Virus record (IMG/VR): IMGVR_UViG_3300032163_000001
Location: 110,249-174,248 of that record
Reading direction: 5' to 3' (one strand)
Length of the DNA stretch: 64,000 nt
Source: a virus
Shown: positions 14,887-63,095 of the stretch, one piece after another
Layout of the letters: each line of letters begins with the position of its first letter
How positions within the stretch are numbered: the first letter of the stretch is position 1
Program-made: the position numbers and the translations under genes
The notes under the pieces: generated by a model
Seen by the model: the letters and a program-made list of their open reading frames with translations, nothing else
Databases searched by the model: none
What the model was told of the DNA's origin: nothing

Positions 14887-16107
14887 ATGAAAAACATAGA
14901 CTATAAAAGAGTCAAGCAGTTTATTATTAAAAATTTCCATGATTTGACTACTCGACAAATGTTTGAAATTGTTAAACAATCTCATGGTTATAATTCTAAC
15001 TTTTCATCTTTTAAAGTATATGTTTCAAGACTAAAAAAGACGGTCATAACAAAGGGTAAGAAAAAAGAATTAGACCCATTTCAAAACAAAGTAATGCAAA
15101 TAATGTCTACTCATAAAGTAATGTCTATTATAGATATTTGTGATATGTTATCGTTTCCCCCTAGTTATGTTTTACAAACTGTATCAACTTTAGCTTCTAA
15201 GGGATGTGAGATTTCTTATGATGATCGTAATATTTACTTTGGAGTTGGGTGTGCTTCTATAGGAAAACCTATAGAAAAACCTCTTGAGGAAGATACTGAA
15301 ATAGTTTTTGGTACTCCATCAGATATACATTTTGGATCAAAAGCTTGTCAAATAACTGCTCTAAATGAATTTTGTGAAATATGCAGAAAACAAGGAGTAA
15401 AATATCAGTTTGTAGCTGGAGATGTCTTTGCAGGATTTAATGTTTACAGAGGTCAAGTTTTTGATTTATATGCTATTTCTTCTGACGAACAAGAAGAATC
15501 TACAATAGTAAATCTACCTGAAGGTTTTGAATGGTATATGCTTGGCGGAAATCATGACTACTCATTTATCAAATCTGGTCCGGGGCATAATCCATTTAAT
15601 GTTCTAACTAGTATAAGAAAAGATACACATTATTGCGGGTTTGATGAAGCAGTTGTACCACTGCTTCCAAATGTAGATTTAAAGATGTGGCATCCTTCTG
15701 GAGGAGTTCCTTATGCTTTATCATATAGGTTACAAAAAGGCATAGAACAAATAGCATTTAGTGAACTACAGAATATTTCTAAATCGTTAAAAGAAAAACC
15801 AACTGTTAGGTTTGTTTTAAGTGGTCATCTGCATATACAAATGCAAGCTATGTTTGGAAGTATTTTTGGAGCTCAAGTAGGAGCATTTGAAGGGACTAAT
15901 AATTTGCTAAAAAGAAAGGGAGTAGTTCCTGCAGTAGGAGGATGGATAATTAAAGCGACTTTAGGGAAAAATAATTTACTAAGATGTTTTGAAACAAAGT
16001 TTCATATGTTTGAGGAAATAGAGAACGACTGGAAAAATTATAAACATTATTTATCTAAAGATGAAAGAGAAAGGAAAGAACCAATTTTTAAACAAGAGAA
16101 AAAATGA
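14887..16107 (+). CDS. Calcineurin-like metallophosphoesterase with a roughly 130-aa N-terminal extension
   Basis: Motifs SDIHFG (D-x-H), VAGDVFAG (GD..D) and GGNHDY (GNH[DE]). Confidence 0.6.
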   Translation: MKNIDYKRVKQFIIKNFHDLTTRQMFEIVKQSHGYNSNFSSFKVYVSRLKKTVITKGKKKELDPFQNKVMQIMSTHKVMSIIDICDMLSFPPSYVLQTVSTLASKGCEISYDDRNIYFGVGCASIGKPIEKPLEEDTEIVFGTPSDIHFGSKACQITALNEFCEICRKQGVKYQFVAGDVFAGFNVYRGQVFDLYAISSDEQEESTIVNLPEGFEWYMLGGNHDYSFIKSGPGHNPFNVLTSIRKDTHYCGFDEAVVPLLPNVDLKMWHPSGGVPYALSYRLQKGIEQIAFSELQNISKSLKEKPTVRFVLSGHLHIQMQAMFGSIFGAQVGAFEGTNNLLKRKGVVPAVGGWIIKATLGKNNLLRCFETKFHMFEEIENDWKNYKHYLSKDERERKEPIFKQEKK

Positions 16108-35242: not shown

Positions 35243-35623
35243 ATGTATCATTATTTAATTACAGTAGGTATTCAAGAAATAGATTCGTCTCTTGCAGGAA
35301 AAATGTATTTAGATAACTTTTTATCATATGATGACAAAGCAAGAAAAAATGTGGAGTCTTGTCAAAAGTTGTCACAAGATCATCTGTTTAAAACCACTCC
35401 AGAACAGTCTGCTGAAATATTTGACTGTAGTAGATTATTAAATGACTTACAAATGATACTAATAAGATGTAAAGTTCAAAACACAATTTTACTACACTAT
35501 ATATCTGAAGATCAATTAGATAAATGCTTTTTCGAAGAATGGGTAATGGTGAACTCTTTAGAAGAACTTAAAAAAGCTCAAGTGGGGAAAGGAGAGGTTC
35601 TCAAAGATGGACATAATTTATAG
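35243..35623 (+). CDS. Hypothetical protein
   Basis: SD AAAGGAGAAGAAATG. 126 aa. Confidence 0.4.
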   Translation: MYHYLITVGIQEIDSSLAGKMYLDNFLSYDDKARKNVESCQKLSQDHLFKTTPEQSAEIFDCSRLLNDLQMILIRCKVQNTILLHYISEDQLDKCFFEEWVMVNSLEELKKAQVGKGEVLKDGHNL

Positions 35624-36017
35624 TTGGCAAGAGTTCGAAAACGACTGTTACGATATCCTAAGACTTTTGTCTAAACTAAAAGAAGTCAAGAACATTTTTG
35701 GAATTCCCAGAGGAGGATTGATACTAGCTGTTAGACTTTCACATTTACTATCAAAACCAGATCACAAAGTACCGTTAATTTTGAGAGATGAAGAAATAGA
35801 ACCAGAAACTCTTATAGTCGACGACATTTCAGACTCAGGAAAAACTTTACTAGAATACTGCTCTTACTACCAAACCAGTTTATCTATTACATTATGGATA
35901 TGTAACGAAACAAAATTTACACCATCGTTCTTTTTAAATACAAAAAACAAGGGTGATTGGATAGTATTTCCATGGGAACAAAACTACCGGGGAACTGCTG
36001 TTGATCCTGAATTGTAA
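35607..36017 (+). CDS. gpt: Xanthine-guanine phosphoribosyltransferase-like (Gpt, type I PRTase)
   Basis: FGIPRGGLILA and PRPP-binding LIVDDISDSGKTL. C-terminal DWIVFPWEQ resembles E. coli Gpt TWIEQPWD. 136 aa. Confidence 0.65.
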   Translation: MDIIYSWQEFENDCYDILRLLSKLKEVKNIFGIPRGGLILAVRLSHLLSKPDHKVPLILRDEEIEPETLIVDDISDSGKTLLEYCSYYQTSLSITLWICNETKFTPSFFLNTKNKGDWIVFPWEQNYRGTAVDPEL

Positions 36018-37823: not shown

Positions 37824-38360
37824 ATGCATTTAGTTGGGATCATCGGTAAAAAAGGAAGTGGGAAATCCGAGTGTTCAAAAATTTTGTGTGAAAAATATAG
37901 TTTTCAGAGGACTTCGTTCGCTGATAAACTTAAGCAAACTGTATCAGATCTTTTCGATATTCCCTTAAACTTTCTTTATGATCCCAAACTTAAAGAAACG
38001 TATGATAATAGATGGGGAAAAACTTACAGAGAAATTATGCAACTTTTTGGTACCGAAGTTGGTAGATGTATTTATAATGACATATGGGTGTATCACGTTG
38101 AGAAACACTTATTACAAAATCCTGATCTTAGTTTTGTTATAGATGACGTTAGATTTAAAAATGAAGCTGTTTTAATCAAAAAACTCAATGGTTTATTAAT
38201 AAAAGTAGTGCGACCATCTAATGACATTCAAAAAGATTTTCATAAATCAGAAACAGAACAAGATGAAATTGAAGTAGATATAACTATCTTAAATAACTCA
38301 TCTAAAGAAGATCTATATAATACAGTCAATCAAGTTTACCTTGAATTTTGTAACAAATAA
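37824..38360 (+). CDS. Deoxynucleoside monophosphate kinase (T4 gp1-like)
   Basis: P-loop GIIGKKGSGKS. FADKLK, REIMQLFGTEVG and LIKVVRP align with T4 gene 1 (VIHVVRP). Confidence 0.65.
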   Translation: MHLVGIIGKKGSGKSECSKILCEKYSFQRTSFADKLKQTVSDLFDIPLNFLYDPKLKETYDNRWGKTYREIMQLFGTEVGRCIYNDIWVYHVEKHLLQNPDLSFVIDDVRFKNEAVLIKKLNGLLIKVVRPSNDIQKDFHKSETEQDEIEVDITILNNSSKEDLYNTVNQVYLEFCNK

Positions 38361-38428
38361 AATTATATCAGATATCTATAGCACTAAAACTATTGTAAAG
38401 ATAATACGTTGAAAGGGAGGTGAAAACA

Positions 38429-39352
38429 TTGAGCTTAAATGAATTAATAGGTAGAAAATCAGTTGGTCGTCCTTGTGTCCCTACTTTAAATTTCATAGTA
38501 GGAAATAGACAATGTAACATGGAGTGTAAATATTGTATTTCTAAAATGACGAAGGCTGAGTTATCTAAACGAGGAGAGGTTTCTCCTTTATGGTATAGAA
38601 ATAGACGTTTAGCTTTTAGCGTAGCAAAGAAGTTTAGTACTGATACAGTGTTAATCACAGGAAAAGGAGAACCAACTATCTGGAAAACAGAATTACTAGA
38701 TACTATAGCAAGAGCTAGTGACGAAGGATTTATTACAGAACTTCAAACAAATGGAGTTTTATTAGATGAATCTTATTGTATTCATCTTGCTGGAGCAGGT
38801 CTTAATACTATAGCTATTAGTAGAGTCACAGTTGATACAGCTACGAATAATTGGATATGTGATCCTATACATTTTAGTACTCCAAATTTACACCAGTTAA
38901 TTCCAATGATCCAAAGACTTGAAATAAAGATGAACATTCGAATTACTTTTGTAGCTATGAAAGGTTACAATGACTCAGTTGAAAAGATAGAGAAAACATG
39001 TCTTTGGGCTTTATCGAATGGAGTTAAACAAGTTACTATTAGAAGAATGGGGATGCCAAATCTTAGTTCAATTGAAAGTTTAGATAGTGCATTCGAGATC
39101 GAAAAATTTGTAACAGATAACCTTGTTCCAGATGAAGAATGGAAAAAGATCATAGATTTCTTTATGAAAGAATACACTATTTTAAGAGTTTTTGACTGGG
39201 GCTCAATCAGCTGGTCTATTAATGGAGTCCAGTGTTTAATAGCTGATTGTTTAACAGTGCCAGGATTAGATGGCACAATCAGGTATCTTATATATTATCC
39301 TGATGGTCATTTAAGATATAGTTGGGAACACGATTCTACAATAATTTTTTGA
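38429..39352 (+). CDS. Radical SAM enzyme (CxxxCxxC; viperin/MoaA-like core), function unknown; start uncertain (TTG 38429 or GTG 38420)
   Basis: RQCNMECKYC, GKGEP glycine motif, LQTNGVLLDE and LNTIAISRVTVD resemble viperin IVSNGSLIRE / LDILAISCDSFD and MoaA. Confidence 0.6.
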   Translation: MSLNELIGRKSVGRPCVPTLNFIVGNRQCNMECKYCISKMTKAELSKRGEVSPLWYRNRRLAFSVAKKFSTDTVLITGKGEPTIWKTELLDTIARASDEGFITELQTNGVLLDESYCIHLAGAGLNTIAISRVTVDTATNNWICDPIHFSTPNLHQLIPMIQRLEIKMNIRITFVAMKGYNDSVEKIEKTCLWALSNGVKQVTIRRMGMPNLSSIESLDSAFEIEKFVTDNLVPDEEWKKIIDFFMKEYTILRVFDWGSISWSINGVQCLIADCLTVPGLDGTIRYLIYYPDGHLRYSWEHDSTIIF

Positions 39353-40977: not shown

Positions 40978-42141
40978 ATGATAATTAATTCGATTCTTGA
41001 CAACGATTTATACAAGTTCACAATGCAACAAGCCGTTTGCCAACTGTATCCATCTGCTCACGCTAGATACGAATTTATTAACAGAGGCAAAACGATATTT
41101 CCACCTGACTTTGATCGTAAATTAGAAAGTGAAGTTAGATATTTTAGTGAATTTAAACTTGGTAAATATGAAAGGCATTTTCTTAATGATATCTATTTTC
41201 TTTATCCTCCCTATATAGACTTCCTTGATGGTTATAAATATAATCCAAGCGAAGTTCAAATAGAACAAAAGCATGGGGATTTAAAGTTAATAGTTGAAGG
41301 TCCTTGGTATAGGGCTATTTTATGGGAAGTACCTCTACTTGCTTTAATCAGTGAACTGTACTTTAAAGAAATAGGGGATATTGGTCCTTTCGCAGGTTAT
41401 GAATCAATAGCTAAAGGAAAAGCAGCTAGATTAAGAGATATTGGTGCTAAATTTGCTGACTTCGGAACTAGGAGAAGGTATTCCTATGAAGTTCAAAACC
41501 ATGTCATTGGGGCTTTAGAAAGTGGAGGAGGTATCTTCTTTAATGGAACTAGTAACGTTTATTTTGCTATGCAACATCAAGTTAGGGCAATAGGCACTCA
41601 GGCGCATGAGTGGATGATGTTTCATGCGTCACAATATGGTTTTCATCTAGCTAACCAGATTTCGATGGAAAAATGGGTGGACACTTATCAAGGAGACTTA
41701 GGTATTGCTTTAGCTGATACTTATACTTCAGATGCTTTTTTCAAGTCGTTTAATACAAAGTTCTCTAAACTTTATGATGGCGTGAGACAAGACTCTGGAG
41801 ATCCAATAGAATTTGCAGATAAAGCAATTAAACATTATGAAAAATTAAGAATAGACCCAACAACTAAAACCATTGTTTTTAGTGATGGGTTAGATGTAAA
41901 CAAAGTAGAAGAAATTGAGAAACACTGTAGAGGAAAGATTAGGACTTCCTACGGGATAGGGACTAACCTAACGAATGACGTAGGAGTCAAACCTTTAAAT
42001 ATTGTTATAAAAATGACTGCGTGTAAATCTACTCTTAGTGATCCTTGGACTAATACATGCAAATTGTCTGACGTTCCCACTAAATATACTGGAGATCCTG
42101 AAATGATAAAACTATGTAAACAAGTTTTGGAGATACAATAG
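40978..42141 (+). CDS. pncB: Nicotinate phosphoribosyltransferase (PncB)
   Basis: DNDLYKFTMQQAV, GPWYRAILWEVPLLALISE, FGTRRRYSYEVQ, IGTQAHEWMMFH, VRQDSGDP and KPLNIVIKM align motif-for-motif with E. coli PncB. SD AGAGGAGG. Confidence 0.8.
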   Translation: MIINSILDNDLYKFTMQQAVCQLYPSAHARYEFINRGKTIFPPDFDRKLESEVRYFSEFKLGKYERHFLNDIYFLYPPYIDFLDGYKYNPSEVQIEQKHGDLKLIVEGPWYRAILWEVPLLALISELYFKEIGDIGPFAGYESIAKGKAARLRDIGAKFADFGTRRRYSYEVQNHVIGALESGGGIFFNGTSNVYFAMQHQVRAIGTQAHEWMMFHASQYGFHLANQISMEKWVDTYQGDLGIALADTYTSDAFFKSFNTKFSKLYDGVRQDSGDPIEFADKAIKHYEKLRIDPTTKTIVFSDGLDVNKVEEIEKHCRGKIRTSYGIGTNLTNDVGVKPLNIVIKMTACKSTLSDPWTNTCKLSDVPTKYTGDPEMIKLCKQVLEIQ

Positions 42142-52467: not shown

Positions 52468-53505
52468 TTAGACAACTTCATCTTCTTCAAAGAAGAAGTT
52501 TAAAGCTTCTTTACATTCTTCTATACCACATCTATCTTTATCTAATTTATCTTCTGGCATAGACTTTGGAGTACCAGGAGGAGTATCCTCTTTTATTTCT
52601 TTATCTACATCAATTTCTTCTTCTGGACCCTCTTCTTCTCCCTCTGGTTCTTCCTCTGGTTCTTCCTCATCTGCTTCCCCTAGTTTTTTTTGGGCAATAT
52701 GACCTGCTGCTCCTCCAGCCACTGCTCCAGGTAGTCCTCCAGCCATTGCTCCAAGAGCTGCACCTCCAACCGCCCCGGCGATGCCTTCTTTTATCACTTC
52801 TTCATCTTCAAGTTCAGCTATTAATTTCTCGATAATAGCTTTTTCTGCATCATCTTCAGATGGTGCTCCTTTAGGTTTGGCTTCGGTTCCGCCTTCGTCT
52901 TCTTGCTGTCCAATAAGATCCTCTGCCTCTTCTACTTCTTTTTCTTCCTCATCTTCTTCTTCAGGTCCTTCTTCTTCAGGTCCTTCTTCCCCTTCTTCGT
53001 CTTTTGCCTCTTTTACTTCTTCTGGTTTTTCTTCCTCTGCTTCTTTATCTTTATCCTCTTCCTCTTTTGAAGGTTCTTCGTCAATCTGTTCTTTAAAAAT
53101 TTTGTATGCTTCTAGAACTTCTTTATCCTCTTCTCCTTCTTCTTCTTTTTCATCTTCTTTCTCTTCATCAGGTTCTGCATCTTCACTAAGTTCATCTTTT
53201 ACTGCTTTAACACCTTCCGGAGGTTTAGCCTCAGTTCCACCTTCATCTTCTTGCCGATCAATAAGTTCTTCATTTTGTTCTCTAAAATAGAACCTCTCTA
53301 AAATAGAAGAAACATTCACGTGAGTTTCAAGTTCTCCTTTTCCCGGATAATCTAAAACTTTTTTAATTGGAGGCGTAGTAATATCAAATTGAGAAGTATC
53401 ATATTCAGAAACCTCTTTAATCGCCTCTTTTAACAAACTTATGTAAGAAACTTTCTTTGTTGTCATTGTATATTTCCTCCTAACATAGAATTCTGAAGTG
53501 TTCAT
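52468..53505 (-). CDS. Extremely acidic Glu/Asp-rich protein with internal repeats (QEDEGGTEAKP x2) and Gly/Ala-rich patch; scaffold/internal-head or DNA-mimic candidate
   Basis: 345 aa with roughly 40% E+D. Head-module position upstream of portal. Confidence 0.45.
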   Translation of the reverse strand: MNTSEFYVRRKYTMTTKKVSYISLLKEAIKEVSEYDTSQFDITTPPIKKVLDYPGKGELETHVNVSSILERFYFREQNEELIDRQEDEGGTEAKPPEGVKAVKDELSEDAEPDEEKEDEKEEEGEEDKEVLEAYKIFKEQIDEEPSKEEEDKDKEAEEEKPEEVKEAKDEEGEEGPEEEGPEEEDEEEKEVEEAEDLIGQQEDEGGTEAKPKGAPSEDDAEKAIIEKLIAELEDEEVIKEGIAGAVGGAALGAMAGGLPGAVAGGAAGHIAQKKLGEADEEEPEEEPEGEEEGPEEEIDVDKEIKEDTPPGTPKSMPEDKLDKDRCGIEECKEALNFFFEEDEVV

Positions 53506-53551: not shown

Positions 53552-55030
53552 CTAAAAGAGGTTCCTCTGTCCTAACCCACCAAATGACAATGTTGGATCT
53601 GAAGTTGGGTCTGGTTTATTACTATTAGAAACTTTTGAAGCCGTTAGAAATTTAAAACAATTAAAATCTACTGTAAAATCTAAAGCTATATTAGTTTTTC
53701 CAGATCTATTCTTTCCTACTTTCATATGAACTAGATTCTCTTTTTGTTCGTCTAGAGCTAGCAAACCTATAAAATCTGCATGCTCAACTTTCTTAATCGA
53801 TTCAGATATTTGATCTAAGTTTAAGTTTCTAGAATCTTGTATCCTATACGCTGATCTTCCTAGTTGTGTAGCTGTTATAACTGGAATATTATAATGAACA
53901 GCAATAGTCTTTAAATCCAATGTTATCTGACCAAGTTCTATTCTATATAAATCAAATTTATAATCACAACTTAATAAATCTAGATAGTCAACATACAACC
54001 CTTTAATCGAATCTTTCCCATATTCGGATATTGTATCATCTAAAACCATCATGATATCAATACAACTAATTTTTGTTGGAGGAAAATATTTCATAATAAC
54101 ATTACTATCATTTCTATTTAAAAGACCTTTTAAATAAGACTTGATATCCAATCCACTAGAAATATCTCTTATAGCTTGAGCTGGACCTTTATTTGTTAGA
54201 CATTGATAAATTCTTTGCAAAGACTCATCTATTGTATTTTCTAAAGTGATATAAACGTAAGTTTTAAATTTACCTTTTTCTGCGTTTGGGTTTGGATTTA
54301 CTGCTGCGTTTATTATAAAGTTATCTAACAAAGTAGACTTTCCAGATCCAGAACCTCCTCCAAAAACATATAATCTTGACGGTTCAAACCCTCCATTAGT
54401 TAATATTTCAGTATCAAATATTGGAAAACCTGTTGGAGTTGTATTTTTTCTTTCATACTTCTTTCGTATCAATTCTATAACAGATGAATAATCATCTTTA
54501 ACTAAATCTAATGATGAAGAAGCTTCGATAGCTGCAAATCTATTGTTATCCATCATCTTTGTATACAGTTCTTTAATCACTACTTCATAATCCATTACTA
54601 CATCATCAATTGAGTCAAACGAACCATTTTTTATAGTATCAACAAAAGTGTTTAGTTTATCGTAATTTGAAAATAAAGAGAATAATTTCTTTCTAATTCT
54701 TACTTGTTTTACATTATCAAGTAAAACTAACTCATTAATTTCTTCATCTAATTTAGTATGTAAAAAGTCAGAAAACTGTTTATATTTCTCACTATAACAT
54801 AAGCTATCAACTATATTCAAATCTCCTTTATCTTCTAGCTTCATTTCACATATTTTACATAGACAATCTACTTTATTTCTAACTATAACTGGGATACCCA
54901 AAGAATCTTTCTCTTTAAAGAAATTAACAATTTCAAGAATATCCCTAAATAAGACTTTATCTTTTCTTATCTTTTCATGTGCAGAAAAAACTAAAGAAAA
55001 ACAATTATTTAGAAAAAACTCTGTTAGCAC
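53552..55030 (-). CDS. Replicative DNA helicase (DnaB/T4 gp41-like)
   Basis: Walker A GGGSGSGKST, RecA-like C-terminal domain. 492 aa. Confidence 0.65.
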   Translation of the reverse strand: MLTEFFLNNCFSLVFSAHEKIRKDKVLFRDILEIVNFFKEKDSLGIPVIVRNKVDCLCKICEMKLEDKGDLNIVDSLCYSEKYKQFSDFLHTKLDEEINELVLLDNVKQVRIRKKLFSLFSNYDKLNTFVDTIKNGSFDSIDDVVMDYEVVIKELYTKMMDNNRFAAIEASSSLDLVKDDYSSVIELIRKKYERKNTTPTGFPIFDTEILTNGGFEPSRLYVFGGGSGSGKSTLLDNFIINAAVNPNPNAEKGKFKTYVYITLENTIDESLQRIYQCLTNKGPAQAIRDISSGLDIKSYLKGLLNRNDSNVIMKYFPPTKISCIDIMMVLDDTISEYGKDSIKGLYVDYLDLLSCDYKFDLYRIELGQITLDLKTIAVHYNIPVITATQLGRSAYRIQDSRNLNLDQISESIKKVEHADFIGLLALDEQKENLVHMKVGKNRSGKTNIALDFTVDFNCFKFLTASKVSNSNKPDPTSDPTLSFGGLGQRNLF

Positions 55031-55042
55031 AAGAATCTCCTT

Positions 55043-55288
55043 TCATAATTTTACACTAGGACTAAGAGCGACATCTATAGTTTCTGAAGATAATTCACCT
55101 ACCTCTCCTTTTGAAACTATTAGTCCAGGTTTTCCCCACCGGTTTTTTAAAACCTTATCTCCACATAATATCAAATCAGCTTGATAAATTATACTATCTT
55201 TCATCCCCTTATAGTTCTCTATAGCTACCAATCCATGTCTCTCTATTAGTTCTGATCTCTCAATAAAAAGTACAGTTCCCTCTTTCAT
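55043..55288 (-). CDS. Hypothetical small protein
   Basis: 81 aa. Confidence 0.35.
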   Translation of the reverse strand: MKEGTVLFIERSELIERHGLVAIENYKGMKDSIIYQADLILCGDKVLKNRWGKPGLIVSKGEVGELSSETIDVALSPSVKL

Positions 55289-55298
55289 AAATCTCCTT

Positions 55299-56687
55299 TC
55301 ATATTTTTAAACCAGGGGTAAAAAGTAAAGTTTCACCCGTCAAATCAGTAAATTCATCTTTAGATAGAAACTTTTTTATTATATAATAGCAAAATTCTTC
55401 ATCTAAATTAGTTAACATTTCAATAGACTTTAAGATACTATTAGATTTTGATGTTTGTTTCTTAGTTACTTTTCCGTCATTCATATCAGAAACGATACTA
55501 GATGCTTTTCTATTAAATTCTTCAAGATTTCCACTTTCGTAAATTGCATATATACTAAGCGCTTGTTCCCTAAGAAAATCTTGTATCTTAGAATACATAT
55601 AGAGGGTTTGTAACATTGAATATATTTTCACTCTTTCAAAGAAAGTTCCAGTTTCTTCAGAATATACTTGTTCCATTTTAATATCTTTAAAGCCAAATTT
55701 ACAAAGTTCTTGTAGTGATTCTCTATATACATCTATCACTTTCTTTTCTCCCCAGTATCTCATTTCTAGAGAAGAAGATCTTATATTTAATCTTTTTACT
55801 TTACCATCTTCTAAAATTGGCAGAAGTCTCCCTATCATTAATCCTTTAAAAACCCCTGAAGAATCATACGTTATTTCTAGATCTATTTCGTGAACTTTTT
55901 GGACGTGTAATTTAAACAGTTCATAGAAAAAAATATCTCTAAAACCAGCTCCACCAAGAATATGAAAATATAGTTTCTTTCTATCAAACTTTTTAGCTCT
56001 ATTTATAAGAGGAATTAGAGGTAGAACATAAATGATACATGGAATACCAGTGTCTGATGCCATATTAGCTACAATGCCACCAGTAGCATGATACTTAAAT
56101 TTATTAAATAAATCATTCTCATCTAAGATTTTAGTATAAATTTCCCACAACTTGGGTGTTCTAAAATGGTGAATATAAATTATTTTTTCTCTAGCATCAT
56201 CTGGTAAATTAGATGCTTCAATATACGACTTTTCATTCATCTTATAAACATCATCAAAAGATTCAAAAATCTTGCATCCTGGTCCTGGAGGGATATCTAA
56301 GATAAAAGCTCGATCATAAACATCTTTATGAACTTGTACAAATTCATAATAAATTTTATGTAGAAGCTCAATTTCTCTTTTATCTAACAAACCAATTGAT
56401 GCTTGGAAACCTCCTGAGTCTGTCATAAAAATACAGTTATCAAGAAATCCATAACCCCTACACTTTTTAAAAAGAGCAGCTTCTTGTTCGGCATATTTTG
56501 AATGATTTTTTCTCCCTCCAAAACCACTTCCAAATGAATGTAAAAACTTATCACATGTTGAAAGAAAGAAATCATTCAAAGTTTTTTTAGTGAAATTATT
56601 ATCAAACTCCTTACTCTTAGTAATAAAGGAATCCATAAAGTCAGCTAAGGTTTCAAACCCTGCACATGTAAAGCCACAATTAGTCAC
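55299..56687 (-). CDS. dpdA: tRNA-guanine transglycosylase-family protein, DpdA-like DNA 7-deazaguanine transglycosylase
   Basis: IFMTDSGGFQASI matches the TGT catalytic ILTDSGGFQVFSL motif. ATGGIVANM resembles YAVGGLAVGE. 462 aa. Adjacent to queE. Confidence 0.65.
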   Translation of the reverse strand: MTNCGFTCAGFETLADFMDSFITKSKEFDNNFTKKTLNDFFLSTCDKFLHSFGSGFGGRKNHSKYAEQEAALFKKCRGYGFLDNCIFMTDSGGFQASIGLLDKREIELLHKIYYEFVQVHKDVYDRAFILDIPPGPGCKIFESFDDVYKMNEKSYIEASNLPDDAREKIIYIHHFRTPKLWEIYTKILDENDLFNKFKYHATGGIVANMASDTGIPCIIYVLPLIPLINRAKKFDRKKLYFHILGGAGFRDIFFYELFKLHVQKVHEIDLEITYDSSGVFKGLMIGRLLPILEDGKVKRLNIRSSSLEMRYWGEKKVIDVYRESLQELCKFGFKDIKMEQVYSEETGTFFERVKIYSMLQTLYMYSKIQDFLREQALSIYAIYESGNLEEFNRKASSIVSDMNDGKVTKKQTSKSNSILKSIEMLTNLDEEFCYYIIKKFLSKDEFTDLTGETLLFTPGLKI

Positions 56688-56969
56688 TTAATTTCCTCCT
56701 ACCATCTTTCCATAGATTTCACCTTCTTTTAAAACCTTTAAAATTTTCTTACCATTCATAACAGCTTGCCCACCATACTTCGCAAAAATGACTATATCCC
56801 CAGGTTTCAATATAGATACAACTTTTGGACCAACAGAAAGCACGTATCCATAGCATTGTGGTCTACTACTAACAGTTTCTGGGATGACTATACCACCCTC
56901 GCTAATTTCTTCTACTTCTTCTAGTACATCAACAACAACATGATCATTTAAAGCTTCGATTGTCTTCAT
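56688..56969 (-). CDS. groES: Co-chaperonin GroES (Cpn10) homologue
   Basis: EEISEGGIVIPETVSSRPQCYGYVLSVG and LKPGDIVIFAKYGG align with E. coli GroES [27 protein letters not shown] and VKVGDIVIFNDGYG. 93 aa. Confidence 0.75.
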   Translation of the reverse strand: MKTIEALNDHVVVDVLEEVEEISEGGIVIPETVSSRPQCYGYVLSVGPKVVSILKPGDIVIFAKYGGQAVMNGKKILKVLKEGEIYGKMVGGN

Positions 56970-56978
56970 CTTTTCCTC

Positions 56979-57653
56979 CTATGTGAAATTATAGACAATA
57001 TGCATTCTATCCGAAATGCAAAAGTTATACTTTTCTGCCATGTCTAAAACAACTTCAGAATTACCAATTAGTTCATCTCTAGTCTTTCCTTGTGGCATAA
57101 GATAAACTCTAAGGTTTGGAAAATTTAGCACCTTCAAGAAATCTAAATATTCATAAATCAACTCTTTATCTTCACATACTAATTTAATATAAACTCGTTC
57201 ATCATTCATTATTTCTTTACTTAGTTTCATATAGAAACCAAGATCTTCGTTTGTAAATATTTTAGGAGACAATATAAATCGAACCTTTTTCACTGGATCT
57301 ACTTTCTTAATTAAACCAACTAAATTACAACCATTAGTCTCTACATTATAAATTGGAGCATTTACACCATTTATTAAAGATATTGTCTGATTTAAATTTA
57401 AGTTAAAAGTTGGTTCTCCACCTGTAATCAATAACCCACAATTATGTTCATCTACAATATTCTGGATATCTCTTAGAGCATAATCTGCTTCATTAGAAAT
57501 CCTCATCTTAACTAAAGTATCACAAAATGGACATGGTGTTCCTGCAGATACTCTTGAGCACCTCTTAAATCTAAGAATTATCATTGGTTGTCCTACATCT
57601 TTTCCTTCTCCTTGAAAACTTAGAAAATTTTCTATAAGTCTAACCTTTGACAT
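56979..57653 (-). CDS. queE: 7-carboxy-7-deazaguanine synthase (QueE, radical SAM)
   Basis: N-terminal ENFLSFQGEGKDVGQPMIILRFKRC matches QueE EMFQTLQGEGYFTGVPAIFIRLQGC. Cys cluster C-x8-C-x2-C then CDT. Confidence 0.7.
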   Translation of the reverse strand: MSKVRLIENFLSFQGEGKDVGQPMIILRFKRCSRVSAGTPCPFCDTLVKMRISNEADYALRDIQNIVDEHNCGLLITGGEPTFNLNLNQTISLINGVNAPIYNVETNGCNLVGLIKKVDPVKKVRFILSPKIFTNEDLGFYMKLSKEIMNDERVYIKLVCEDKELIYEYLDFLKVLNFPNLRVYLMPQGKTRDELIGNSEVVLDMAEKYNFCISDRMHIVYNFT

Positions 57654-57666
57654 AATTTCTCCTTTC

Positions 57667-60600
57667 TCAAAACTTTAAGATGTTTTCATTTCTTCCTATT
57701 AACGGTTCTAGCATCAGTTTATATCTGTCAACCCATGAAAACTTAATCATTTCTTTTATATCTATATTGTAATAATTTGGTAGAGAAAGTTCTTCATCCG
57801 GTAAACATATAACATCTAACTTCTTATTTTTAGATAAAAATTCTTTACTGTATCGTTCTAAAACTTCTTTAGGAGCTATTTGATCATTTATTCCATTTAT
57901 CTTAAATAAATATCCTTTCGAACCATGAGCAAATATTTGATATTCTAAAACATTCCAGTTCAAAAAACCAATTACGTTTTGCGGAATCCTTTTATAATCA
58001 TCTAAATCTTTAGTAAAAGATGCTGGTCTAGCTACACTTTTTTCTCCTCCAGTAACTCTCTGAAAAAATTCTGTTTCTTTTGAATCAATAAATTTTTTAG
58101 TTGCAAACATAGAAAACTTTTCCGACTTCAAAATTAAATCTAAAAGTTCTTTTAGACATTCTTTTGTATAACTTGGATAATCGGATCTTTTAGTATCTAA
58201 ACCCATACTTTTAATTTCATCTGTTTCTGTCCCTTCTTCAGAGATAATGTATATAGAATAATGTTTTTTACTTAAAAATAATCCTCTCTTAATAACTAGT
58301 TCATTCTTTAAATCTAATCTATTATATTGTAAACTAACATTATGCTTTTCAACAAGTTTCTCTACAACATCTTTATTTAAATAAGATCGAATTTGATCAC
58401 ATAAAACTTTTACTTCTGCAACTTTCTCATTTTCATTCTTTCCTTTAATTAAAGAATCTAGACTTAAAAATACAGAATCAGTATCACCAGTAATAACATG
58501 TTCAATCTTTCTATCTAATTCTCCAAACATTTCTTTTTTATTTAATCTAGTTTGTTCAATGTCTTTTTTGACTCTTAGAGATTCAACAAATACGTCAGAA
58601 GAAACAATAGTTGATTTTAAAAATTCTTGACCACTTAAAGTAATACTTATTGCGCAATCTATATTATAAAATCTATAAGCTGCATTACCAAGAACTCCAT
58701 ACATAGCATTCGCTAAAACTTTAAAAACTAACTGTCTAACTTCATACAATTCTTCTTCAGATTTATTCTTTGCTTGTTTTGCTTCGAACATTTTCTTCTT
58801 AACTACTTTTCTAGATTGTAAAATATATTCTAATATTTCACTATAAAATGATAATTCGGTTCTATGAGGTTTAAAGAAACATCCATTTATTGTATATGTT
58901 AAATTAGATTCTATAATTTTCTCTATCAATTGTTCTCTAGTAATTTCCATTTCTTGAAGAGTTAAGTCAGGATCTAATATAACAGAAAGTTTCTCTGGTA
59001 ATTTTTCTGGTTGATAAATAAGATCATACCCAAGTGTATGGTCCTTAAGCTTCATAACAATTGTATTAAAACCAACATTAAATGTTTGAATTATACTAGG
59101 ATATAGTGATGTAAAATCAAAATCAACTATCCATTCATGTAAACCAACCTTAGGTTCTTTTACATAAGCTCCTGCAAAAGCTTCATCTTTTAACTGAACA
59201 TTTGCATTTCTAGAAGCATACCCTTTGGATTTTAACCAAGAAGATACTAAAGAATCTAATTGACCCATTGCATTTAGCGCTGATTGAAACGTACACTTAC
59301 ATATCTTTTTTAACTCACTAGCTAAAGAAATATGTTTAACTTTATCTTCTAATTTAACTGTTAGTAAAACGTCTCTTCTATTGTATTCAATCGCTTTATT
59401 TACATCATCTCTAAACATCTGGGAGAAGTTTGATCCACTATCTAATTTACTTTCTTTTAGTTCTATCTGTGCTATCGTTCCAAGTCTATAGTTTTCTTTC
59501 TTTGTAGGTGTAAAAGTCCTGTATAAAGTTAACTGGTCAAGAATTATAAAACCATAAATATCTGCGTAACCCTTATCTCCATCAATATTTACTTCTCCAA
59601 GTTTAGATAGAAGATCTTTGTTTATACCTAATTTTTCACATCGATTAGTTAAATATGGAATATCAAACCATGAAAGATTCCAACCAGTTATAACGTCTGG
59701 ATCTATTACTTTAATATCCTTTATGAATGTAGTGAGCAAATCTTTTTCACTTTTAAACACAAGAATTTCATCTGATGCTTTTATAGCTTGAAGAGAAGTA
59801 TCTTTTAAAAGAATTCTATTATCCATAACATACGTTACAATTTTATCTTTATAACCATAACTAATCATACAAACTGGATCTTTTGCTTCAGCAATATTAG
59901 GGAACTCTTTCTTAATACTATACACTTCTATATCTAAAAACATTATATTAAGATCCAAATTCTCTTCTTCTGGTTTTTGGATATAATAGTCATTAGAATG
60001 TTTAGTTACTAATTTGAAATCTCCATCATAAGTAACTTCATGGTCAAGTCCATACTTTTCTCTGTATAAAACTTTCATCTGAAATAGTTCATCATACTTC
60101 ATTACTTTTTTAGCTAAAACACCATCAGGTACTTTATAACAATAATAATCATCATTCTCCCTATGAAAAACTTTCTTACTATCTTTATCTTTAAAGATAT
60201 AAAGAACTTGGTTACTTCTATGTAAATATTGAATATCTAAAAGTTTGTAGTCTTTAGTGTAAAACTTATCTTCTATTTTATAAAAATGAATTCCCTTCTT
60301 TTCTAACTTTTCTACTTTCATAGAAGAAGATACAATTCCAGGAATACCCAAATATGCAGATACATATCTCATATCTTGATCAAACTTTTCTTCAAAACTT
60401 CTATTCCTAGAAACATATGAAGGATGGACCGTAAAAAATACGTCATGTTCTTTCCATCGAAACATCTTTCCTCTGAAGCTTGTTATATGAGCATCTTTAT
60501 CAAAAATCTCAAATGCTTTTCCTGCAGTCCCTCCCATTAGAACAATTAGCTTGGCATTACTACACTGTTCTATGATCTTAAAGCAATTTTCTTTACAAAG

Positions 60601-60909
60601 ATCTATAGTTCGATCACTTGGATTTATAGTTGTTTTTCTTTCTTTATCTAATGTCTGACAAAGAACTACGTTCGTCAAAAGATACTTAACACTGTTAAGT
60701 TTATACATACTAAAATATTTTCGAAATAATTGTCCAGTTTTTCCTATAAGTGGAACTTCTTTTTCAACCTCATCTTTCCCTGGATTCTCTGCAACAAAAA
60801 TTACTTTTATTTGATCAAAAGATTCTGCATTTGTTTCAAGTATACAAGACTTCTCTCCAAATAATTCACATGAAGAACAATCAGCAAAACTATTTTTAAT
60901 ACTAAACAT
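57667..60909 (-). CDS. Family B DNA polymerase with N-terminal family-4 uracil-DNA-glycosylase-like domain
   Basis: ITGDTDSVF (Pol C motif YGDTDS). DIEVYS exo I. N-terminal roughly 170 aa carry CSSCELFGEKSC, AENPGKDE (UDG4 GE.PG..ED) and VHPSYV (HPS). Confidence 0.8.
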   Translation of the reverse strand: MFSIKNSFADCSSCELFGEKSCILETNAESFDQIKVIFVAENPGKDEVEKEVPLIGKTGQLFRKYFSMYKLNSVKYLLTNVVLCQTLDKERKTTINPSDRTIDLCKENCFKIIEQCSNAKLIVLMGGTAGKAFEIFDKDAHITSFRGKMFRWKEHDVFFTVHPSYVSRNRSFEEKFDQDMRYVSAYLGIPGIVSSSMKVEKLEKKGIHFYKIEDKFYTKDYKLLDIQYLHRSNQVLYIFKDKDSKKVFHRENDDYYCYKVPDGVLAKKVMKYDELFQMKVLYREKYGLDHEVTYDGDFKLVTKHSNDYYIQKPEEENLDLNIMFLDIEVYSIKKEFPNIAEAKDPVCMISYGYKDKIVTYVMDNRILLKDTSLQAIKASDEILVFKSEKDLLTTFIKDIKVIDPDVITGWNLSWFDIPYLTNRCEKLGINKDLLSKLGEVNIDGDKGYADIYGFIILDQLTLYRTFTPTKKENYRLGTIAQIELKESKLDSGSNFSQMFRDDVNKAIEYNRRDVLLTVKLEDKVKHISLASELKKICKCTFQSALNAMGQLDSLVSSWLKSKGYASRNANVQLKDEAFAGAYVKEPKVGLHEWIVDFDFTSLYPSIIQTFNVGFNTIVMKLKDHTLGYDLIYQPEKLPEKLSVILDPDLTLQEMEITREQLIEKIIESNLTYTINGCFFKPHRTELSFYSEILEYILQSRKVVKKKMFEAKQAKNKSEEELYEVRQLVFKVLANAMYGVLGNAAYRFYNIDCAISITLSGQEFLKSTIVSSDVFVESLRVKKDIEQTRLNKKEMFGELDRKIEHVITGDTDSVFLSLDSLIKGKNENEKVAEVKVLCDQIRSYLNKDVVEKLVEKHNVSLQYNRLDLKNELVIKRGLFLSKKHYSIYIISEEGTETDEIKSMGLDTKRSDYPSYTKECLKELLDLILKSEKFSMFATKKFIDSKETEFFQRVTGGEKSVARPASFTKDLDDYKRIPQNVIGFLNWNVLEYQIFAHGSKGYLFKINGINDQIAPKEVLERYSKEFLSKNKKLDVICLPDEELSLPNYYNIDIKEMIKFSWVDRYKLMLEPLIGRNENILKF

Positions 60910-60912
60910 TAT

Positions 60913-61440
60913 TTATCCCCTAATAATTGAGAAATGTTCAGATATGAAACTTTTGATTTTTATTTGAATTCCTTCTTCTTTCTTCTTCTTTAAGTTCTTA
61001 ATTGCCTTAGCTTTTTCTGGTTTCAAAAGTCCAAGAGAGTCATAGATAGATTTTTTAGAATCTTCATCTTCTCTATCTATAATACTAGACAACAAATTTA
61101 TATCACAACCTTTTAATGTAGGAAATTTCTTCCTCAAAGCTTGAAATAAATCACTATTTTTTTTCGAACTAAAAAATGACAAATTATTTCTTCTAACTCT
61201 AAAGTCTATAATACACTTTTTGATAAACTTAAATAGATCTTCTTTCTCTAGATAAAACACTCCAACATTATTAAAATACTTATCTAAATAATGGTTAAGT
61301 TGTCCATACAACAAAAACATTGAAATAATTCTATTATTACTTATTGGAGAATTGTACTTTAAGAAAACTTCTTTTTGTGGAATTTCTGAAGTTCTACTCC
61401 CGTCAAACAACCATTGGTTAAAGACTTCGTATTCATTCAT
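60913..61440 (-). CDS. Hypothetical protein
   Basis: 175 aa. Confidence 0.4.
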   Translation of the reverse strand: MNEYEVFNQWLFDGSRTSEIPQKEVFLKYNSPISNNRIISMFLLYGQLNHYLDKYFNNVGVFYLEKEDLFKFIKKCIIDFRVRRNNLSFFSSKKNSDLFQALRKKFPTLKGCDINLLSSIIDREDEDSKKSIYDSLGLLKPEKAKAIKNLKKKKEEGIQIKIKSFISEHFSIIRG

Positions 61441-62374
61441 TACTCTCTTCTTTCATAATCCTTATTATATTGTTATAGAAATTATTAATAAGATCCTGAT
61501 TTAATAAGTTAGGAACTGTATCAAGAAAATCAATCCTTAATTCTGATCCTGCAGGGTATAAAAAAGGTTTTGGTAGTAACTCAGGATATGAGAACTTATC
61601 TGGAGCAATAACAGATGTGTTATTCATAACTGCTTCTAGAGCTTGATATCCAAATGTATCTTCATTAGTAGTGATTAATAAAACTTTTCCTTGCGATAGA
61701 AATTTATAATATTCTTTCCATGTTGAACATTCTTTTCTTACTATTTTAGTTTTCAAACTCTTCTCAATAAAACGTTCTAACCTTTTATTGACTTTCTGCC
61801 TACACGGTCTAGAAACCGAAATTATATCATATATCTTCTTTTCTTTAAACGTTTTAAAAGGGGGTTTTGGAAGACCTACAACTTCAGTATTTTTCCATCC
61901 TAGTTTTTCTTGGTGATATTTAGTTGCTACAAACACTTTTTTAAACAATTTTGAATGTCCAGTTTCTACTAACCATTTACTTTTTCTAACTGGAGCAAAA
62001 TAATCAAACGCATTTTTAGATGTTGCGTGACAGAACGCAAAACAATTTTTCATTGGTTTATGATACAAGACATTCGAAAACAAACCAGGAAAAGAAATAT
62101 CAGCTAAAAAGAGAATATCATCATTTTCTAATCTTATATTTAGAAACTGGTGAATTTGTTGATATTCAAAAGAAATAGATTGTTCAACTGGAGAAAATAA
62201 CCTTTTATCCCTATTATCTTCATAATCAGTAAGAGACTCTCCTAAAACAACAACTTCATCAAAATGTTTTATAAACTCTTTAAAAAATTCTCTATGCCAC
62301 CATTCTTGATATCTCATTTTAGCTGGAAACTGAGGAACAAAAATTATTCTGGACATATGATAAAGTTTCTCCAT
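61433..62374 (-). CDS. GT-B fold glycosyltransferase (GT4-like C-terminal E.FG...LEA motif)
   Basis: NEDTFGYQALEAVMNNTSVIAP. 313 aa. Confidence 0.55.
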   Translation of the reverse strand: MEKLYHMSRIIFVPQFPAKMRYQEWWHREFFKEFIKHFDEVVVLGESLTDYEDNRDKRLFSPVEQSISFEYQQIHQFLNIRLENDDILFLADISFPGLFSNVLYHKPMKNCFAFCHATSKNAFDYFAPVRKSKWLVETGHSKLFKKVFVATKYHQEKLGWKNTEVVGLPKPPFKTFKEKKIYDIISVSRPCRQKVNKRLERFIEKSLKTKIVRKECSTWKEYYKFLSQGKVLLITTNEDTFGYQALEAVMNNTSVIAPDKFSYPELLPKPFLYPAGSELRIDFLDTVPNLLNQDLINNFYNNIIRIMKEESNE

Positions 62375-62597: not shown

Positions 62598-63095
62598 TTA
62601 TTTTACTAGCCACTTACACCGCCCTTCAAATAAGTAATATTTACCATCATTCGTCCACAAATCTTTTTGAGATGGATACACTTCATCTAACACTTCTTTC
62701 TTCTTCATCCAATGTTCAACTTCAAAACAATATGGTGCTTGCATATTTATTGAATAGAAAATAACATCAAGACCTGAACGAAGCATGCTTTCTCCTATTG
62801 CACCCCATCTTCTGTGTTGGTAATGACCAGCTTCAGTAGGGTCTGGAAAATAGAGAGTAGTTTTAGGGTTTATGAAAACTGGTGGGATTGAAGCTGTAAA
62901 GTACTGAGAAGTTACATTGTTAAACTTAGACTTAAGAGAAAGAGCTTCTTCTCTTCTAATTATATCAATATTAGTATCTGTATAAACTATACAAATACTT
63001 CTAGACTCATTTGATATGACTGAGAAACAACCAATTAGTTCATCATCAGCGTGGGGAGCCACAATCACAATTCTGTTATTTTCTTCTTTCACCAT
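62598..63095 (-). CDS. PIG-L/LmbE-family N-acetylglucosaminyl deacetylase
   Basis: IVIVAPHADDELIGCFSVI matches the PIG-L AHPDDE..G motif. 165 aa. Confidence 0.6.
   Translation of the reverse strand: MVKEENNRIVIVAPHADDELIGCFSVISNESRSICIVYTDTNIDIIRREEALSLKSKFNNVTSQYFTASIPPVFINPKTTLYFPDPTEAGHYQHRRWGAIGESMLRSGLDVIFYSINMQAPYCFEVEHWMKKKEVLDEVYPSQKDLWTNDGKYYLFEGRCKWLVK

Follow-up and report, generated by a model that had tools for sequence, protein, structure and literature searches.

The 64,000-nucleotide stretch of virus DNA that we analysed (hereafter the window) carries a predicted DNA-modification gene pair inside its replication module. The module lies on the minus strand and comprises, from upstream to downstream:

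57667..60909, minus strand: family-B DNA polymerase (PolB) with an N-terminal UDG-superfamily domain; the upstream neighbour and replication-module context
56979..57653, minus strand: 224-aa QueE-like radical-SAM enzyme (PHROG 2076), predicted 7-carboxy-7-deazaguanine synthase
56688..56969, minus strand: 93-aa Cpn10/GroES co-chaperonin (Pfam Cpn10) with an intact mobile loop (G-G-I-V-I)
55299..56687, minus strand: 462-aa protein of the TGT/DpdA superfamily, predicted DNA guanine:7-deazaguanine transglycosylase, with a GTG start
55043..55288, minus strand: 81-aa ORF (orf81) between transglycosylase and helicase; context only, no family match
53552..55030, minus strand: DnaB-type replicative helicase; context, and the conserved downstream neighbour of the transglycosylase-family gene

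The gene calls supplied with the source contig agree with the three minus-strand ORFs of 462, 93 and 224 aa. The 462-aa protein has more than 600 homologues, which speaks against chance ORFs, and the conservation of the N-terminus among homologues shows that the GTG start is right. The module reads PolB–QueE–GroES–transglycosylase–orf81–DnaB with gaps of 0–13 nt: PolB ends 13 nt before the QueE-like start, and the stop codon of GroES is immediately followed by the start codon of the transglycosylase. GGAG ribosome-binding sites are found at the module genes, there is no intergenic terminator in the module, and a scan for promoters and terminators returned sites at chance level; transcription of the module genes together with those of the replisome is probable. 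The product of orf81 had no match in Pfam, PHROGs or PADLOC, and the ORF was not detected in related loci. Those loci share a backbone of PolB, QueE, GroES, a variable segment, the transglycosylase family, DnaB and portal, with DnaB as the downstream neighbour of the transglycosylase-family gene in 45 of 48. An apparent fusion of a transglycosylase-family protein to DnaB helicase (P0186) was an artefact, in which gene calling under code 4 had translated an in-frame TGA at the domain boundary as Trp.

We then considered what the 462-aa protein is. As the initial annotation had described, it carries the motif DSGGFQ, at residues 90–95; the same motif is identical in E. coli Tgt and thus marks the TGT superfamily rather than DpdA specifically. 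Its length, which had been read as a sign of DpdA, is not diagnostic either, since E. coli Tgt has 375 residues, Salmonella DpdA 413, the phage enzyme DpdA2 458–464 and DpdA3 259. The protein conforms to the TGT-type (beta/alpha)8 barrel fold, with a C-terminal four-helix region at residues 351–440, and its five hallmark motifs follow the same order as in E. coli Tgt, at nearly matching positions. The predicted catalytic residues are D90 (general acid/base, in TDSGGFQ), D131 (base recognition) and D275 (nucleophile, in TYDSS), which are collinear with D89, D143 and D264 of E. coli Tgt and are aligned to DpdA2 by hhalign; H173/H174, G203-G204 (pocket) and H242-L244-G245 are further predicted active-site residues. 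Among 63 family members, down to about 20% identity, D90, G93, H242, L244, G245 and D275 are invariant, and S91, Q95, D131 and H174 are conserved in at least 90% (H174 in 97%). These residues are the counterparts of those whose essential role in DpdA has been demonstrated.

Standard resources did not identify the protein. It had no match in Pfam (including PF01702, the TGT family), NCBIfam Tgt, PHROGs or PADLOC DpdA; phmmer and profile searches of PDB sequences came back empty; and neither tblastn of 50,697 phage records nor megablast of the 14-kb region gave an identification. Profile comparison assigns it to a family that had not been annotated before, a sister of phage DpdA2, the enzyme of Vibrio phages nt-1, VH7D and ValKK3 (Hutinet et al. 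2019, 2023). In hhalign the two families aligned over 190 columns, from DSGG to YDSS, at 96.8% probability (E = 2.3e-10). They are similar in length and have in common the motifs DSGG, (F/L)D(E/I)(I)P, H(M/I)LG(V/G)G and (S/T)YDSS; neither is detected by Pfam or has the CxCxxC zinc site, and both are found in T4-like myophages that encode a gp31-type cochaperone close by. They are nevertheless distinct: identity is only about 19% in the aligned core, and at E < 1e-3 the DpdA2-family HMM detected 2 of 269 members of the new family, the reverse search finding 1 of 120 DpdA2 sequences. Where DpdA2 has a TGT-like QGN, and so lacks the conserved histidine of DpdA, the new family has an invariant HHFRT, and where DpdA2 has TCIGNG it has GGIVAN. 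DpdA2 sits in a full FolE/QueD/QueF/QueC cluster, whereas the new family sits in a replication module with QueE only.

Other members of the superfamily are further away. Bacterial DpdA (Salmonella Montevideo, PDB 7ui4) and DpdA1 (phage 9g type) are 12% identical to the 462-aa protein, which, unlike them, has no structural zinc site, Pfam TGT match or PADLOC DpdA match. No DpdB-like ATPase partner was recognised by PADLOC in the protein or its neighbours; HTH-like genes upstream in GC-rich members (L137, L138), considered as DpdB-like candidates, had no PADLOC or Pfam support. DpdA3 (Cellulophaga phiST CGPG_00065 and the Campylobacter CP220 group), a distant phage TGT-like enzyme found in some T4-like phages, shares with the new family the absence of the zinc motif and an HxLG...DS core but is much shorter, at about 260 aa. 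Membership in DpdA3 was rejected, as hhalign gave probabilities of 0.14% with the single sequence and 3.5% (E = 0.012) between profiles, with no HMMER cross-matches. The DpdA4 domain DUF6610 (PF20314) had no Pfam match in the protein at E ≤ 0.01, and we found neither a 'DpdA5' nor a description of the phage clade that carries this family in the literature.

These comparisons bear on whether the enzyme might act on tRNA, modifying host or phage tRNAs as classical Tgt does. We consider this very unlikely. The closest homologous family, DpdA2, is a DNA enzyme that has been shown experimentally to insert preQ0, preQ1 and CDG into DNA. The 462-aa protein differs from bacterial Tgt (PF01702) in its C-terminal domain and its phage replication-module context as well as in lacking Pfam and NCBIfam matches. 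The zinc motif CxCxxC (site CxCx2Cx22H) was absent from all family members in two sets (39/39 and 63/63). In TGT and DpdA this site pins Ins8, the insertion through which Z. mobilis TGT touches the anticodon stem of the tRNA; its absence also from the DpdA2 and DpdA3 alignments indicates that the phage subfamilies do not require it. The gene keeps its place between PolB and DnaB throughout the clade, the only tRNAs in the window, Gln(UUG) and Trp(CCA), are not GUN-anticodon substrates, and according to the literature none of the phage Tgt-like enzymes examined to date has turned out to be tRNA-specific.

The second member of the pair, the 224-aa protein, matches PHROG 2076 ('QueE-like radical SAM', E = 3e-25) and, by tblastn, an annotated phage QueE; its only PDB match is Burkholderia QueE. 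It has an N-terminal FxSFQGEG motif (Q14-G15-E16-G17), a TGGEP SAM motif (T77-G78-G79-E80-P81) and cluster cysteines C32, C41 and C44, which are spaced Cx8CxxC here and in the canonical CxxxCxxC in most relatives. The positions of the cysteines, QGEG and TGGEP are at least 95% conserved among 24 clade sequences. The copy in this phage had no Pfam match, and the protein falls well short of the curated QueE equivalog cutoffs (best NCBIfam model TIGR03963, 45.9 versus 260.1 bits). That a QueE gene lies two genes from the transglycosylase was borne out, and the association extends beyond this phage: a QueE-like gene is found within 1–4 kb of the transglycosylase-family gene in 43 of 48 loci, QueE directly adjoins that gene in a member only about 20% identical, and in one natural fusion (P0260) a QueE-like protein is joined to the transglycosylase-family domain. 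A 166-aa ORF following this fusion, examined as a split C-terminal domain, gave no significant match.

It could be argued that an enzyme of TGT fold performs another chemistry here, acting as a DNA glycosylase without 7-deazaguanine insertion or exchanging a base unrelated to the QueE product, in which case the QueE-like protein would serve another purpose. The isolation of the family in sequence, pocket motifs (HHFRT and GGIVAN) that differ from those of DpdA2, the shortfall of the QueE-like protein against the curated cutoffs and an incomplete preQ0 pathway in the clade would all fit such a function. Against this, the equivalents of all three catalytic aspartates and the pocket glycines vary little or not at all, the pairing with the QueE-like gene has been kept over long divergence, including as a fusion, and the QueE-like protein retains QGEG, the cluster cysteines and the SAM motifs and matches nothing but QueE in PDB and PHROGs. 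We therefore regard a different chemistry as unlikely, and 7-deazaguanine modification of the phage DNA as likely. The proposal that a 7-deazaguanine replaces guanine in the virion DNA finds partial support, in the DpdA2 homology and the QueE pairing; the length and the DSGGFQ motif do not contribute, as neither is specific to DpdA.

To look for the rest of the pathway, the initial annotation had suggested searching the remainder of the genome for queC, queD, folE, gat-queC or dpdB-K. We combined Pfam searches of about 50 window proteins, precomputed Pfam calls on contig positions 7.6–89 kb and phmmer searches with phiST references of all ORFs of the window and its flanks. QueC, QueD and FolE are indeed not encoded in the window, but a QueC gene lies on the same strand about 1.6 kb past its right end (contig 15317–16042, equivalent to window positions of about 65577–66302), 8.9 kb from the transglycosylase gene. 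The protein passes the NCBIfam TIGR00364 equivalog cutoff (188.5 versus 150.3 bits) and carries the PP-loop motif SGGxDS as SGGMDSS. QueC at this distance was found in this phage only, and its closest relatives adjoin DpdA3 genes in 39 of 80 loci. QueD and FolE were not found in the 81 kb of contig examined (7.6–89 kb), nor were QueD, FolE, DpdL or QueF among the ORFs of the window and flanks by phmmer, and the search for a DpdB-like gene was likewise negative. In relatives, FolE, QueD and QueC were all missing within 10 kb of the transglycosylase-family gene.

The 93-aa protein between the two enzymes is, as had been stated, a genuine Cpn10/GroES, scoring 54 bits against the Pfam cutoff of 21.1. 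Its mobile loop, EGGIVIP at residues 24–30, contains the glycine and three hydrophobic residues that characterise such a loop. Although tblastn against phages gave no match, pairwise comparison showed it to be homologous to the gp31-type head-assembly cochaperone of Vibrio phage ValKK3, at 35% identity. With T4 gp31 and RB49 CocO it shares the Cpn10 domain, the mobile loop and residence in a T4-like phage with a gp23-type capsid protein, which this phage encodes; its Pfam score is that of a canonical Cpn10, not of a strongly diverged gp31. In this clade it takes the place of T4 gp31 and RB49 CocO, as a co-chaperonin with the gp23-like capsid protein as its predicted folding client. The placement of groES within the locus had been called unusual, but its position belongs to the conserved backbone described above. 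The abutting GroES and transglycosylase codons, and the proximity of a cochaperone gene to deazaguanine genes in ValKK3, might suggest that GroES serves the modification system, for instance as a folding factor reserved for the transglycosylase or for QueE. We give this idea almost no credence: in relatives, GroES and the transglycosylase-family gene lie 0.3–4 kb apart, with variable cargo between them (thymidylate synthase, MazG, HD, RF-1 and others), distant members have QueE directly beside that gene with no GroES, and a gp23-type capsid protein is encoded by the phage. GroES is a neighbour by conserved synteny and not a component of the modification pathway.

The location of the pair directly between DNA polymerase and helicase also raises the possibility of pre-replicative modification, in which the enzyme or a partner makes a 7-deazaguanine deoxynucleotide that the adjacent PolB incorporates, with wholesale replacement of G. 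The window does encode a dNMP kinase and a xanthine/guanine-PRTase-like protein; however, these lie about 18 kb away and have ordinary salvage explanations. All characterised 7-deazaguanine DNA modifications have been attributed to post-replicative transglycosylation by DpdA, and the TGT mechanism acts on polymer-bound nucleotides, which makes a pre-replicative route highly improbable.

Together, these data favour, with a probability of roughly two in three, a model in which the 462-aa protein, a DNA transglycosylase of a DpdA2 sister family, inserts a 7-deazaguanine made with the adjacent QueE-like enzyme, GroES being an unrelated neighbour. By analogy with TGT and DpdA, D275 would attack C1' of deoxyguanosine in phage DNA while D90 would protonate the leaving guanine, and a 7-deazaguanine base bound by D131, H174 and the GGIVA pocket would then resolve the covalent intermediate. 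The base would come from conversion of CPH4 to CDG by the QueE-like enzyme; in this phage a laterally acquired QueC may carry CDG on to ADG/preQ0. CPH4 itself would be supplied by host FolE/QueD or by genes on the unseen part of the genome, and the modified DNA would be expected to resist host restriction.

A broader, rather doubtful possibility is that QueE and a fifth DpdA subfamily with a bacterial-DpdA-like histidine form a core pair in the replication module of a large clade of uncultured aquatic T4-like phages, sampled worldwide and with contigs of up to 312 kb. The pair would install a QueC-independent 7-deazaguanine (dCDG or a new derivative), perhaps, through co-expression with polymerase and helicase, at high density during replication. 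If so, 7-deazaguanine DNA would be a lineage-defining trait of these phages and not an accessory one. Curated DpdA/TGT models are used to decide whether a 7-deazapurine cluster serves nucleic-acid modification; because none of the Pfam, NCBIfam, PHROGs and PADLOC models detects the transglycosylase family, they would credit this entire clade of T4-like phages, abundant in the environment, with a QueE but no insertase. Recognition of the family lends wider reach to the proposal that a DpdA is encoded by every phage possessing genes for deazaguanine synthesis. The subfamily adds a distinct base-recognition motif, HHFRT, its substrate may differ, and together with the QueE-like enzyme it provides a concrete gene pair for a possibly QueC-independent modification.

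The family protein, a 462-aa member of the TGT/DpdA superfamily and a predicted DNA transglycosylase, is encoded together with a GroES and a QueE-like radical-SAM protein between two replication genes. The ORF listing and the contig's own gene calls agree on all three ORFs, which are on the minus strand, and this bears out the places given to them in the initial annotation. Read in reverse complement, the window corresponds to positions 17619-81618 of a metagenomic contig of 111,530 bp (ENA ERZ27247924 k141_4250956). The source is a low-GC (~30%) T4-like myophage whose portal is of T4 type and which also encodes a gp23 capsid protein and a prohead protease.

Genes of the run from PolB to the helicase (window coordinates; for the QueE-like, GroES and family genes, ORF listing and contig gene calls are identical)
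57667-60909, minus strand: family-B DNA polymerase (PolB), flanking the trio on one side
56979-57653, minus strand: QueE-like protein, 224 aa
56688-56969, minus strand: GroES, 93 aa
55299-56687, minus strand: family protein, 462 aa
55043-55288, minus strand: ORF of 81 aa with no family match
53552-55030, minus strand: DnaB-type helicase, flanking the trio on the other side

Intergenic gaps across this run are 13, 9, 0, 10 and 12 nt, a GGAG-type ribosome-binding site precedes each gene, and a promoter and terminator scan found no terminator-like site between them. The PolB N-terminus (residues 33-175) is a UDG-superfamily domain (PF03167, E 1.4e-16), a fusion also called in the related loci L003 and L009. 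A low-complexity protein of 345 aa, extremely acidic and rich in E/D/K (52468-53505, minus strand), is encoded between the helicase and the genes near the portal.

The family protein had no match in Pfam, PHROGs, NCBIfam or PADLOC, none among all PDB sequences by single-sequence or profile search, and none in 50,697 phage records by tblastn. More than 600 metagenome homologues were found, none carrying a domain or name, and when 1.84 billion representatives were searched exhaustively by profile, the family emerged as a discrete set of 321 clusters at 50% identity. The protein's catalytic motifs come in the same order as in authentic E. coli Tgt and at nearly matching positions.

Catalytic motifs of E. 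coli Tgt and the family protein
TDSGGFQ: Tgt D89, family D90
Tgt FDEC (D143), family LDIP (D131)
Tgt GGLAV (214), family GGIVA (203)
Tgt MGVG, family LGGAG (~245)
Tgt FDC (D264), family YDSS (D275)

Across 63 family members, down to ~20% identity, D90, G93, H242, L244, G245 and D275 are invariant, and conservation is at least 90% for S91, Q95, D131 and H174. In DpdA the conserved residues correspond to the acid/base Asp95, to Asp130 and His181, which recognise the base, and to the nucleophile Asp256; mutagenesis of DpdA found Asp95 and the nucleophilic Asp essential. That the TGT fold serves a different chemistry here is improbable. One GC-rich (55%) member, P0156 (L138:10001-12055), sits on a bacterial-looking contig near a serine recombinase and a sigma-54 activator, its C terminus fused to a Cys-rich GP88 domain of unknown function (PF17338, E 3.5e-16).

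We compared the family with the divergent phage DpdA subfamilies. The DpdA2 profile was seeded with a 458-aa gene from the FolE/QueD/QueF/QueC cluster of Vibrio phage ValKK3 (61% identity to nt-1 VPFG_00171) with 42 relatives gathered, and the DpdA3 profile with phiST CGPG_00065 and 28 relatives. Profile-profile comparison (hhalign) of the family with DpdA2 gave 96.8% probability (E 2.3e-10) over 190 columns, which begin at the DSGG motif and end at YDSS, the motif of the nucleophile; as a yardstick, DpdA2 against DpdA3 gave 73%. Membership of DpdA3 was rejected at an hhalign probability of just 3.5%, and membership of DpdA4 because its defining DUF6610 gave no match. HMMER cross-detection between the family and DpdA2 was near nil (1/120 and 2/269). 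Whereas DpdA2 has a TGT-like QGN, the family has an invariant HHFRT at the same position, its histidine resembling bacterial DpdA and DpdA1; according to Hutinet et al., the histidine of that type is missing in DpdA2. From these comparisons we conclude that the family probably forms a separate sister family of DpdA2.

The CxCx2Cx22H structural zinc site of TGT/DpdA is absent in every family member, and also in DpdA2 and DpdA3, so its absence does not distinguish the family. It does bear on whether the protein, sharing the motifs of Tgt, might instead act specifically on tRNA: the zinc site pins insertion Ins8, which in Z. mobilis TGT touches the tRNA anticodon stem. Such a role is unlikely, given also that the nearest family, DpdA2, works on DNA, that the gene is placed in the replication module, and that the window's tRNAs (Gln-UUG and Trp-CCA) are not Q-family substrates.

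The 224-aa protein matched PHROG 2076, 'QueE-like radical SAM' (E 3e-25), and several NCBIfam QueE models, every score well under cutoff; it is 24-28% identical to annotated QueE of Cellulophaga and Campylobacter phages, and its sole PDB match is Burkholderia QueE. Across the clade, conservation is at least 95% for the QGEG motif, the three cluster cysteines and the TGGEP SAM motif; the cluster motif is CxxxCxxC in most relatives, and a five-residue insertion makes it Cx8CxxC in the window phage. In the QueE-like genes of two relatives (L136:131-1363 and L053:1460-3181), an intein-like insertion interrupts the sequence precisely at the third cluster cysteine (...CPW|C...HN|CDT...), the L053 insert matching the Pfam Hint module (E 1.5e-4). 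Insertion at this residue points to a functionally critical cluster motif; we know of no inteins reported in QueE.

The order PolB, QueE-like, GroES, variable cargo, family gene, DnaB, portal is near-universal in 48 related loci, which form one syntenic lineage including near-duplicates, so that counts are not independent events. The QueE-like gene is present in 43; of the five loci lacking a separate match, three have less than 3 kb of upstream sequence. The pairing extends past this lineage: P0260 is a single table-11 ORF in which a QueE-like part (first 235 residues, 33% identical to the window protein, E 1e-27) runs straight into the family domain, and at L136 a family member ~20% identical to the window protein lies directly 3' of a QueE-like gene, and no GroES separates the two. 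An apparent family-DnaB fusion, P0186, was discarded as a code-4 read-through artefact. In a relative's contig (L011:441-3350), in-frame TGA codons that the source translated as Trp suggest either gene calling under code 4 or a phage whose host recodes TGA.

Pfam identifies the 93-aa protein as a genuine Cpn10 (54 bits against a 21.1 cutoff); it has the mobile-loop signature GGIVI and matches phrog_931 'head morphogenesis' and the ValKK3 'head assembly cochaperone', itself a Pfam Cpn10 (35% identity, E 4e-6). According to the literature, the viral GroES homologues T4 gp31 and RB49 CocO are needed for capsid-protein folding, and GroES-only genes rank with the commonest in aquatic viromes. The position of GroES next to QueE and the transglycosylase, between the two, had been called unusual, a view we could not sustain: 38 of the 48 loci share it, and relatives carry 0.3-4 kb of variable genes inserted after GroES. 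GroES is thus backbone synteny, an ordinary neighbour outside the pathway, and despite its position a part in modification has little support. In ValKK3 (L139, 4637-9457), a cultured Schizotequatrovirus, a gp31-type cochaperone lies ~1.4 kb from QueC and ~3 kb from DpdA2, echoing the window; this may reflect ancestral linkage in T4-like genomes.

A QueC passing the curated equivalog cutoff (L001:386-1111) lies 8.9 kb from the family gene, ~1.6 kb past the window's right end. Its C-terminal Cys-rich (zinc-binding) motif reads ...SCY...RPCSKCGTDVER, with Asp where the last Cys ligand of QueC is expected. QueC does not belong to the clade's gene set: within 10 kb of the family gene it is missing from every relative, and the 80 best QueC loci in IMG/VR are all on contigs without a family gene. 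The closest QueC relatives (at most 52% identity) adjoin DpdA3 genes in 39 of those 80 loci, suggesting that QueC was probably acquired laterally. FolE, QueD, DpdL and QueF were not found in the 81 kb of contig examined; relatives of 148-312 kb suggest that the contig is partial.

In the window phage, the host would supply CPH4, the QueE-like protein would convert it to CDG and QueC would convert CDG to ADG or preQ0, the resulting 7-deazaguanine base then being inserted in the predicted last step. A nucleotide route acting before replication has little support. Across the clade at large only QueE and the transglycosylase are conserved, leaving CDG, or a host-completed preQ0, as candidate bases. 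The modified share of G is below 0.1% with DpdA2 and complete with DpdA3, so the extent of modification in the family is not predictable. The original proposal that a DpdA-like enzyme and QueE indicate 7-deazaguanine DNA holds as the likely reading: fold, motifs, remote homology and gene linkage all point to it.

Several other genes were observed. A 136-aa protein (35607-36017, plus strand) resembling xanthine/guanine phosphoribosyltransferase (NF006613, E 6e-10, under cutoff) could salvage guanine freed by base exchange; the phiST annotation also includes a phosphoribosyl transferase, and an NAPRTase lies at 40978-42141. A second radical-SAM protein (38420-39352, plus strand; 310 aa), adjoining a dNMP kinase (37824-38360), best matches prokaryotic viperin (E 5e-15) and MoaA GTP 3',8-cyclase, all far under cutoff, and could be another nucleotide-modifying enzyme. 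Just upstream of PolB are a weak glycosyltransferase match (phrog_2170; 61433-62374, minus strand) and a 165-aa protein (62598-63095, minus strand) whose 'APHADDELIG' motif resembles the PIG-L/LmbE deacetylase signature; with a Glycos_transf_1 gene past the window (L005:3354-4373), these possibly indicate a sugar-based modification. An 823-aa protein (30774-33245, plus strand) combines a vault repeat with the shoulder domain of Major Vault Protein (PF11978, E 3e-27), unexpected in a phage. Extra genes of relatives (L003:5357-5596, L003:6412-6618, L008:7436-7714, L008:8818-9204 and L008:16824-18569) include ribosomal protein S21 between QueE-like and GroES, an RF-1 domain protein, an Acb2/Tad1-hairpin (anti-CBASS/Thoeris-like) protein and, beside the portal, a large protein with a Mom-like domain.

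A literature search found no description of the family. Throughout an uncultured T4-like clade its gene is a fixed part of the replication module, and what is new is a predicted transglycosylase of an unannotated, widespread putative sister family of DpdA2, one overlooked by current models.
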